Source: Escherichia phage P1. From it: a stretch of DNA of 64,000 nt. Each line of letters begins with the position of its first letter. Positions within the stretch are counted from its first letter, which is position 1. Of this stretch, positions 35,037 through 38,055 are shown piece by piece. The notes under the pieces were generated by a model, which did no database searches, was not told where the DNA came from, and worked only from the letters and a program-made list of their open reading frames with translations. The stretch lies in the sequence record AF234173.1; one strand, 5' to 3'. A program made the translations under genes and the position numbers.

Positions 35037-35934
35037 GCACTGGAAAAACATTACTATTTATAAACTTTCTCGTGAGGCGGATCTGACCGACTTAGAAGAT
35101 AAAAAGAAAATGATCCTTTTCACGCCATGCGGTAGTCAGGATATGGCCAAGTTCGGTTTTGTATCTCCATTTGGTGATAATTCCGAAGTTATCGCTATGC
35201 ATGGAAATGGTTTTATCCTTGTTGAAGCAAAGCGCGAAACAAAAATTCTTCCCCCGCCGGTTATCCAGCGAGCTATTCAAGAAAAAATTGAAAAACTTGA
35301 GCAAGAACAAGCGCGTAAACTGAAGAAAACAGAGAAGGACTCCCTGAAAGACGAAGTTCTGCATTCTCTTCTGCCACGGGCTTTTTCAAAGTTTTCTGTT
35401 ATCCAGGCGATCTACGACGGTTCAACTAAACGTATCTATATCAATGCCAGCGCGCGGCAGGCAGAGGATATGCTCGCGCTTATGCGTAAGTCTCTGGGTT
35501 CTCTTCCTGTTGTTCCCCTGAGTGTTGAAAATCCCATTGAATTAACGCTGACCGACTGGGTACGTGATGGTAGTGCTCCACAGGGATTTCAAATGGGGGA
35601 TGCGGCAGAACTTAAGGCAGTGCTTGAGGATGGCGGTATTGCCCGAGTGAAAAAGCAGGATTTGGGAAGCGATGAAATTTCCACACACCTGGAAGCTGGC
35701 AAGCTCGTTACTAAGTTGGCACTCGACTGGCAGAAACGCATTAAATTTACACTGGACCATAACTTCAGCCTTACCAGCGTCAAATTTGCGGATGAATTGC
35801 TTGAGCAGAACTCTGATATTGATAGTGAAGATGTTGCGCAGCGACTGGACGCAGATTTCTTCCTGTTGACCAGTGAAATTTCGTGCCTGGTTGATGCTCT
35901 GGTAAATGCCCTTGGTGGAGAGGCTAAGCAGTGA
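35029..35934 (+). CDS. hypothetical protein (about 301 aa)
   Basis: ORF track 35008 (TTG); ATG at 35029 more likely; overlaps the start of the methyltransferase gene. Confidence 0.45.
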
Positions 35935-37847
35935 AAGAGCTGTGCTATGGATCTGTTTGCAGTGGAATTGAAGCCGCGAGTATTGCCTGGGAACCGTTGG
36001 GTATGCGTCCGGCGTGGTTTGCTGAAATCGAGCCTTTTCCATCTGCCGTTCTTGCGCACCGCTGGCCCCATGTCGCCAACCTTGGCGACATGACAAAACT
36101 TGCCAAAAAAGTCCTGGCTGGGGAAATCGAATCCCCTGATGTGCTCGTCTGGGGTACGCCTTGTCAGGCATTCAGTATCGCGGGCTTACGTGGTGGGCTT
36201 GATGATGAACGCGGCGCGCTAACTTTGAAGTATGTGGAGCTTGCAAATGCAATTGACGACAAACGGTCTGAGTCCTTCCTCAAACCGACAGTTATCGTCT
36301 GGGAAAATGTCCCAGGAGTCCTGTCATCGGCAGATAACGCCTTCGGATGTTTCCTTGCCGGATTGGCTGGAGAAGATGCGCCATTTGAACCAGGTGATCG
36401 ACCTGAATCAGGAAAAAGTAACGCGTTCTGGCGGTGGGATGGCAAAACCGGTTGCCATGCTCCAAAGTGGCCGCAGTGTGGTTGTATTTATGGACCGCAG
36501 CGAAAGGTGGCCTGGAGAATCCTTGATGCCCAATACTTCGGAGTGGCACAACGACGCCGACGCGTGTTTGTTGTCGCAAGTGCTCGAACAGACCTCGATC
36601 CCGCAACGGTACTTTTTGAGTTCGAAGGCGTGCGCCGGAATATTGCGCCGAGGCGAAAAAAGAAGGAAATCGCTTCCGCCATTATTGCAAATGGCGCTGC
36701 AATCAGTGGCGAAAGCCTAAATCCATGCCTACACGCTGACATGCCACCCAGTATGAAATCGACGAAAGCCGTAAACGCTTTCAGGATGGCAGCATTTGGG
36801 GAATATATTGACGATGAAACCGCATCGACAGTAAAGGCAAGAGATTTTAAAGATGCCACTGACCTTGCCGTTTTTAGCAGCACAGGAGCAGGTTTTTGGT
36901 CAGAAGGGCATGGTACATTGCGGGCACGTGAGCAAGAAAGCCATGAGCATCTTGTTACATTGGCTTTTCCTGAGCGTATGAGCGGTACACAACATGCTGC
37001 AACTAAGAATACTTCACCATCTCTAATGGCTAAAAATCCAACAGCTGTTTGCTATGAAGTAAGAAACGCAGAAGTAGCTGTCCGCCGTCTTACCCCTGTC
37101 GAATGTGAAAGGCTGCAAGGTTTTCCTGATGGGCATACGTTGATCCCGACGGAAAAGCGTAAAAAAGTTAATTCAGATGAACTGGCATATCTTCGCAATC
37201 ACTATCCAGATTTAAGCGAAGAAGAGGCCGCGATGCTTGCAGCTGACGGACCGCGTTACAAAGCGATCGGCAATAGTATGGCAATACCAGTAATGCGCTG
37301 GATTGGCGATCGGATTACTAAGGCCGTATGTCGGCAGAAAGAAGGAAGTGAAACAAAAGAGCGAAAAGTTAAACCAGCGGCAGAATTCGAACGGTCCATA
37401 TTCAAATGGGCTGGTGGAAAATTTGGTGTTCTGGAACAAATCTTTCGCTATTTGCCAGAAGGGAAGCGCCTGATCGAACCTTTTGTCGGTGGCGGAGCTG
37501 TCTTCACGAATGCCGGATACCAGGAAAATCTGCTAAATGATGTGAATGCTGACCTGATTAACTTTTACAAGACTCTGCAACGCGAGGCGCATTCACTTAT
37601 CACACTGGCGCATCGTTTCTTCCAGGACTACAACACACAGGAAGGATACCTGGCAGTACGGAATGCGTTTAACAAACAAGTCTATGATGATTTACATCGC
37701 GCAGCGGCGTTTTTGTTCCTGAACCGACATTGTTTTAACGGATTGACGCGCCAAACATCAGAGAGCTTTATCATGACAGTGGCTTCAGAGTGGAACCTCT
37801 TTTTGCCAGACGTTCTGTGTCTTGTAAGGGGGACACTCGAGGTGTAG
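35931..37847 (+). CDS. dmt: DNA methyltransferase: C5-cytosine MTase module fused to a Dam-like N6-adenine module that appears 3'-truncated
   Basis: PCQ and ENV motifs in the N-terminal two thirds; C-terminal FKWAGGKF...[10 protein letters not shown]... (Dam motifs) but no DPPY before the stop. Confidence 0.75.
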
Positions 37848-37866
37848 CTCATGACGTTTTGGGTAT

Positions 37867-37893
37867 ATTGCTCTAATAAATTTATTAGTGTAA
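37867..37893. promoter_or_regulatory. overlapping divergent C1 operator pair (Op72-like)
   Basis: ATTGCTCTAATAAATTT overlapping AAATTTATTAGTGTAAT. Confidence 0.75.
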
Positions 37894-38055
37894 TATCGCC
37901 TCAATGAATCGTGATTTATAGAGCGATTTAGCTGTTAGCCGCGACAGGCGCGGCGGTAAGCATGGCTGGGCCTAGTCCTCCCAGACAAACCACCGAGTTG
38001 CCAGGTTGACCATGCGCCTAAGTGGCAACGCCGAAGTGCGTTACGAGCTTCCAGT

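Follow-up and report, generated by a model that had tools for sequence, protein, structure and literature searches.

Why should a methyltransferase gene stop in the middle of its second catalytic module? The stretch of DNA analyzed here (64,000 nt, henceforth the window) contains, in its ORF list, an ORF of 638 codons with a GTG start, which joins a C5-cytosine methyltransferase to the beginning of a Dam-like N6-adenine methyltransferase (Table 1). An earlier note, made from the sequence without database searches, proposed that the adenine-methylating half of this "Dmt-like" gene is inactive or, else, that the gene marks a recombination boundary. Our comparisons indicate that the gene is dmt from phage P1 with a 319-bp internal deletion spanning from an MluI to a BssHII site, most likely made in vitro and probably leaving the Dam half null; we assign a probability of about 0.9 to this reading.

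The motifs initially described for both halves (PCQ and ENV for the first, and the N-terminal AdoMet-binding motifs for the second) were all found in the ORF. The C5 half contains PCQ, with the catalytic Cys (motif IV; aa 77–79, positions 36159–36167), ENV (motif VI; aa 125–127, 36303–36311), QRRRR, conforming to QxRxR (motif VIII; aa 207–211, 36549–36563), and GNS (motif X; aa 447–449, 37269–37277), the four conserved motifs being unchanged from the reference protein. The ORF matched PF00145 (C5 methyltransferase, E = 7e-36) and TIGR00675 (115 bits, cut-off 100.65), with scores for both families equal in the window and in the reference Dmt. As far as its sequence goes, the C5 half of the deleted Dmt is untouched; the annotation of AF234172 describes the cytosine activity of Dmt only as "perhaps at C5 cytosine".

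The second half retains the N-terminal AdoMet-binding region of the Dam family, including FKWAGGKF (aa 491–498, 37401–37424), an FxGxG-type motif I, EPFVGGG (within aa 516–525, 37476–37505), and the acidic motif II, NDVN (aa 536–539). It matched PF02086 (D12 N6-adenine methyltransferase, E = 2e-27) and TIGR00571 ("dam", 123.5 bits, cut-off 114.85) over profile positions 1–129 of 253 and 3–123 of 267, respectively, whereas the reference Dmt covers positions 1–242 and 3–262 of the same profiles. The ORF does not contain a full-length Dam-family catalytic domain, and ca. 46 % of the Dam module is kept. The assertion that the module ends before any DPPY, with none encoded downstream, held up: the catalytic motif IV, sought as [DNS]PP[YFWH], occurred neither in the ORF nor in any of the six frames of positions 37600–39500.

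The window corresponds to the last 64,000 bases of the P1 genome and is colinear with positions 30482–94800 of the reference (AF234172/NC_005856). A megablast search of the phage collection with positions 35000–39500 (4,501 bases) returned two 100 % pieces that together extend over 4,820 bases in the reference. Positions 1–37750 of the window correspond to 30482–68231 of the reference, with 9 mismatches, and 37744–40500 to 68544–71300, the point differences in positions 1–40500 amounting to 10; positions 40501–64000 align to 71301–94800 as a single piece with 100.0 % identity as scored by megablast. The final 120 bases are the same in both sequences, which terminate at the lox half-site. The sole length difference in the 64 kb is thus the absence, at 37750/37751 and within dmt, of 319 bp (nt 68228–68546 of the reference). 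The flanks of this gap are 100 % (35000–37750) and 99.9 % identical to AF234172, and "Dmt-like" proved too cautious a name, because the gene is P1 dmt itself, without a single difference over 35000–37750.

The reference protein (AAQ14041.1; AF234172 66412..68676) is a bifunctional enzyme, with Dam-type N6-adenine and C5-cytosine methyltransferase halves, encoded by this same gene. The GTG start, the operon, the operator Obanab beyond the gene and residues 1–607 are all identical in both sequences, whereas the window lacks residues 608–713 and has its final 41 codons in a shifted frame. The alignment to P1 Dmt, named in the earlier note as a comparison that could overturn its claim, showed that the reference protein ends elsewhere: it has 754 aa, with DPPY at residues 664–667, inside the deleted 319 bp. 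The deletion removes codons 608 to 713 plus one base, which shifts the frame, and codon 607 changes from CGT in the reference to CGC in the window, both coding for Arg. Translation then continues into an out-of-frame tail with a premature stop (Table 1). Since the native C-terminal 41 codons persist out of frame, dmt is internally deleted and frameshifted, and not simply shortened.

The consequences for the protein can be placed on Escherichia coli Dam (PDB 2G1P, 4GBE and others), a GATC-specific N6-adenine methyltransferase of the D12 class, alpha group. The Dam module of the reference Dmt (aa ~487–750) aligns with residues 5–266 of 2G1P (E = 9e-58) without large gaps, and both proteins share KWAGGK, EPFVG(A/G)G, D(I/V)N, NGL(C/T)RYN and DPPY. 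The copy in the window stops at the equivalent of R124, which aligns with Arg607 of Dmt, and everything from Y125 onward is gone, including DPPY at 181–184; also, unlike E. coli Dam, the remnant sits behind a C5 methyltransferase. The lost stretch comprises the remainder of the hairpin region for DNA recognition, DPPY and most of the Dam catalytic subdomain. Losing motif IV together with the catalytic subdomain is expected to abolish Dam activity, and the deleted Dmt is predicted to be unable to methylate GATC, in agreement with the inactive adenine half proposed originally.

Table 1. Features of the window related to dmt, its deletion and its surroundings.
Feature	Position	Strand	Basis
C1 operator Odmt (Op68, 34664–34680) and promoter Pdmt, driving the uhr-hrdC-dmt operon	34664..34709	+	AF234172 annotation 65145–65190, offset 30481
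Deleted dmt allele: Dmt residues 1–607, 31 frameshifted residues and TAG stop	35931..37847	+	ORF list; identity to reference
C5-cytosine methyltransferase half, intact	35952..37310	+	PF00145, TIGR00675
Dam module, retained N-terminal part (Dmt aa 487–607), including NGLTR	37389..37751	+	TIGR00571, PF02086; alignment to 2G1P
Deletion joint ACGCGC, hybrid of MluI and BssHII	37746..37751	.	Comparison with reference
Native 3′ end of dmt (codons 714–754 and TAA), orphaned and out of frame with the upstream ORF	37751..37876	+	Frame-0 translation equals reference C-terminus
Out-of-frame tail of 31 residues (QTSESF...GTLEV) and premature TAG (37845–37847)	37752..37847	+	Translation compared with reference
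Bivalent C1 operator Obanab (Op72a/b), overlapping promoters P1ban/P2ban	37867..37894	.	AF234172 annotation 68667–68694
"dicF-like region", 3′ end with terminator-like hairpin and T-run (38054–38085)	37991..38092	+	Annotation; terminator scan
pac packaging site, 4+3 TGATCA/G hexamers flanking the cleavage positions (~60004–60013)	59922..60080	.	Hexamer positions; pac annotation

The edges of the gap suggest how it arose. MluI (A^CGCGT) and BssHII (G^CGCGC) both generate 5′-CGCG overhangs. The left edge in the reference reads GGATTG-ACGCGT-TACAACC, with an MluI site at 68227–68232, and the right edge reads CAGTG-GCGCGC-CAAACATC, with a BssHII site at 68546–68551; the distance from cut to cut (68546 − 68227 = 319) is the same as the missing length. 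The window reads GGATTG-ACGCGC-CAAACATC across the joint, with the A from the MluI side and then the C from the BssHII side. Ligation of a left MluI end to a right BssHII end would produce precisely this ACGCGC, with loss of both sites and removal of 319 bp. Each end of the deletion lies, therefore, where one of two enzymes with matching sticky ends cuts, and the joint is composed of one part of each site. As it is exactly the product expected from sticky-end ligation of MluI and BssHII fragments, construction in vitro is the most likely origin of the deletion. There are two further MluI sites and one further BssHII site in dmt, so such a construction would have had to start from a subclone or rely on partial digestion. 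The recombination boundary suspected from the sequence does exist as a joint in the DNA, but the hybrid MluI/BssHII site argues against a natural boundary.

A plain deletion between 7-bp direct repeats was also considered and rejected, because the mismatch between the two copies (TGACGCG and TGGCGCG) sits where the MluI and BssHII sites differ. A related explanation is a spontaneous deletion in a laboratory stock, by slippage or microhomology between the TG(A/G)CGCG copies, with the coincidence with restriction sites being accidental. This event would give an identical joint, as the two ends share six of seven bases, including an exact CGCG, and would be tolerable because dmt is dispensable on dam+ hosts. 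Besides, of the 66 ordered pairs formed by the 12 CGCG tetramers in dmt, six (9 %) are also MluI–BssHII pairs. Nevertheless, an exact microhomology of 4 bp is a weak substrate, both ends coincide exactly with sites for enzymes with compatible overhangs, and the name of the allele is delta-MB; altogether, we regard a spontaneous origin as improbable.

The deleted allele has, in addition, already been deposited. An exact-sequence look-up identified the 638-aa product, with 638/638 residues identical and no detectable difference, as AAQ14149.1 (UniRef100_Q71TA0), annotated as "Dmt, incomplete [Escherichia phage P1]"; with this exact product and its P1 flanks, the deleted dmt is an already known allele rather than a novel type of enzyme. 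We take the deletion to be the dam/dmt "delta-MB" allele, the source strain presumably being P1 c1-100 mod1902::IS5 dmt-delta-MB rev-6 (AF234173, 94,481 bp). Two P1 c1-100 strains were reportedly sequenced by Lobocka and coworkers in 2004, one carrying mod749::IS5 (AF234172, 94,800 bp) and the other corresponding to AF234173, and the delta-MB dam deletion is said to originate from work by Coulby and Sternberg, published in Gene in 1988. The designation MB fits MluI–BssHII.

In a collection of 15 billion proteins, the 638-aa protein is carried by one contig only, as would also be the case if the source record had been wrongly sequenced or assembled. Against this, the name "Dmt, incomplete" was given by the depositors themselves, and the gap is a clean block of 319 bp bounded by restriction sites, without homopolymer or repeat collapse; an artefact is therefore hardly credible.

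We then looked for the deletion in natural records using a 301-bp query spanning the joint (37600–37900). This query matched as two pieces over ~620 bp in all 17 phage records, in the best 60 of 469 plasmid records and in the best 60 of 479 E. coli records, indicating that these records carry the 319 bp. Likewise, an exact 33-mer across the joint had no matches in viral contigs or in a collection with one genome per species, and an exact 22-mer had none in metagenome contigs. The allele is thus confined to one laboratory record among the records listed and the three contig collections scanned.

These searches also bear on whether the ORF could be a natural short variant of Dmt, or the product of a module or recombination boundary, in which a C5 methyltransferase is joined to no more of Dam than its AdoMet-binding part. 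The locus is certainly variable: P7 and several records labelled P1 match 81–88 % of the 4.5-kb query, and the Dam-family genes of P7 and of natural P1-like plasmids, situated at the same locus beside the C1 operators of ban, are in some cases annotated as Dam alone and in others contain an intein in the C5 half, in forms of 1095 aa. Nonetheless, among the matches listed these genes are full length and contain the 319-bp segment, as does every natural record listed, and the joint had no exact match in the three contig collections. The near-identity of both flanks to the reference P1 and the persistence of the native C-terminus out of frame are also difficult to reconcile with a natural variant, which we consider extremely unlikely. 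If the deletion was indeed made in vitro, a gene "ending inside a domain" would here reflect a laboratory pedigree and not biology, which calls for caution, and UniRef100_Q71TA0 (638 aa) should not count as a natural domain architecture.

The packaging of P1 DNA begins at pac, which is cut by pacase. The cleavage of pac requires GATC methylation according to PMC12707154, which also indicates, citing Sternberg and Coulby (1990), that dmt is essential in Dam- hosts only. The dependence of pac cleavage on GATC methylation would explain why dmt is needed only in those hosts. A CRISPRi screen of P1vir classified dmt as nonessential (PMC10695390, which cites Coulby and Sternberg, 1988). The GATC-containing hexamers of pac (Table 1) are the functional target of Dam methylation by either Dmt or the host Dam. 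By stripping DPPY and the catalytic subdomain from the Dam module of Dmt, the MluI–BssHII deletion would make the phage dependent on the host Dam for methylation of these hexamers; normal growth would be expected on dam+ hosts, and poor growth where the host is dam-. Users of this P1 sequence should consequently assume that dmt is probably null for GATC methylation and that pac cleavage would rely on the host Dam.

A further possibility, to which we give rather low credence, is that the truncated Dmt, if stable, behaves as a separation-of-function mutant, with a whole C5 half and the AdoMet-binding subdomain of Dam alone. Such a protein could reveal whether the C5 half truly methylates cytosine at C5, which target it recognizes and whether its activity depends on the Dam half.

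Finally, we examined the regulatory sequences around the gene, for which reference features upstream of the gap were mapped onto the window with a constant offset of 30481. dmt is a C1-controlled gene, induced during lytic growth, and in the annotation of AF234172 it comes last in the C1-repressed operon Odmt/Pdmt-uhr-hrdC-dmt. The earlier note had an operator pair and a terminator following the gene at once. This is correct for the operators: Obanab begins 19 nt past the stop codon of the deleted ORF, with one half (ATTGCTCTAATAAATTT) at 37867–37883 and the other, on the minus strand, at 37878–37894. The terminator-like hairpin, however, is ~207 nt downstream of the ORF, in the dicF-like region, and is not the terminator of dmt; an Rfam search of 37700–38800 found only two tRNAs above threshold and did not match DicF (E ≤ 0.1). 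Similarly, a scan of 37700–38600 found no sigma-70 consensus site, although P1ban and P2ban are annotated there. Obanab belongs to the ban operon, the next transcription unit downstream, and neither the operator pair nor the hairpin has any bearing on the truncation of dmt. The wild-type stop codon of dmt, still present at 37874–37876, falls within Op72a.

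The wild-type P1 dmt stop codon (TAA) is contained in Op72a, one of the C1 operators of the Obanab pair, and the 3′ end of this methyltransferase gene is overlapped by the −35 boxes of P1ban and P2ban, the promoters of the ban operon. Therefore, the end of one C1-controlled operon is superimposed on the control region of the next one. Downstream of the ban promoters, the P1 annotation includes a 'dicF-like' region, which is closed by a strong terminator-like hairpin (see the table below). Since this region had no match to Rfam DicF at E ≤ 0.1, the covariance model lends no support to classing it as a small RNA.

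Certain natural P1-like elements, none of them in the window, encode a Dmt of 1095 aa; in the Dmt cluster, these E. coli forms are proteins P0002, P0010, P0011 and P0013 (HBC1252578.1 and EJU0171345.1, among others). In them, an insert of 340 aa separates 'GGTP' from 'CQAF', immediately N-terminal to the catalytic Cys in motif IV of the C5-methyltransferase. The insert starts with CFTAGH and ends with VVHN, the next residue being Cys, and profile searches identified in it matches to LAGLIDADG_3 (32.3 bits) and to Hint_2 (28.4 bits, equal to the cut-off). It looks like an intein that carries a homing endonuclease and interrupts the m5C half at its active site.

Compared with the reference P1 genome (AF234172), there were 10 point differences across positions 1–40500 of the window, the only part compared base by base, with 40501–64000 compared by megablast. 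Half of them were clustered in 332 bp (34936–35267 in AF234172) of the tail-fibre gene S, in its variable C-terminal part and within the Cin-invertible C segment, and may reflect a gene-conversion patch instead of independent mutations. The three differences in pmgG lay within 198 bp.

Features of the window and point differences from AF234172
Feature	Window position	Gene or location
Inverted repeat arms	1733–2355; 5388–6010	ends of C segment
Point differences	4455, 4460, 4480, 4518, 4786	gene S
Point difference	11376	gene sit
Point differences	23674, 23684, 23871	gene pmgG
Op72a	37867–37876 (part shared with wild-type dmt)	
Wild-type dmt stop codon	37874–37876	Op72a
'dicF-like' region	37991–38092	
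Terminator-like hairpin	38054–38085	'dicF-like' region
Point difference	38532	16 nt upstream of tRNA-Asn
tRNA	40133–40208	trnI

At either end of the invertible C segment (Sv/Sv′ region, cix sites) lies one arm of an inverted repeat of 623 bp, as expected for P1; the two arms are ca. 99 % identical (six mismatches). ARAGORN identified trnI as tRNA-Met (CAT), and the P1 record labels it tRNA-Ile2, also with a CAT anticodon, which is presumably read as Ile once lysidine-modified; this gene would be mislabelled by automatic tRNA calling.
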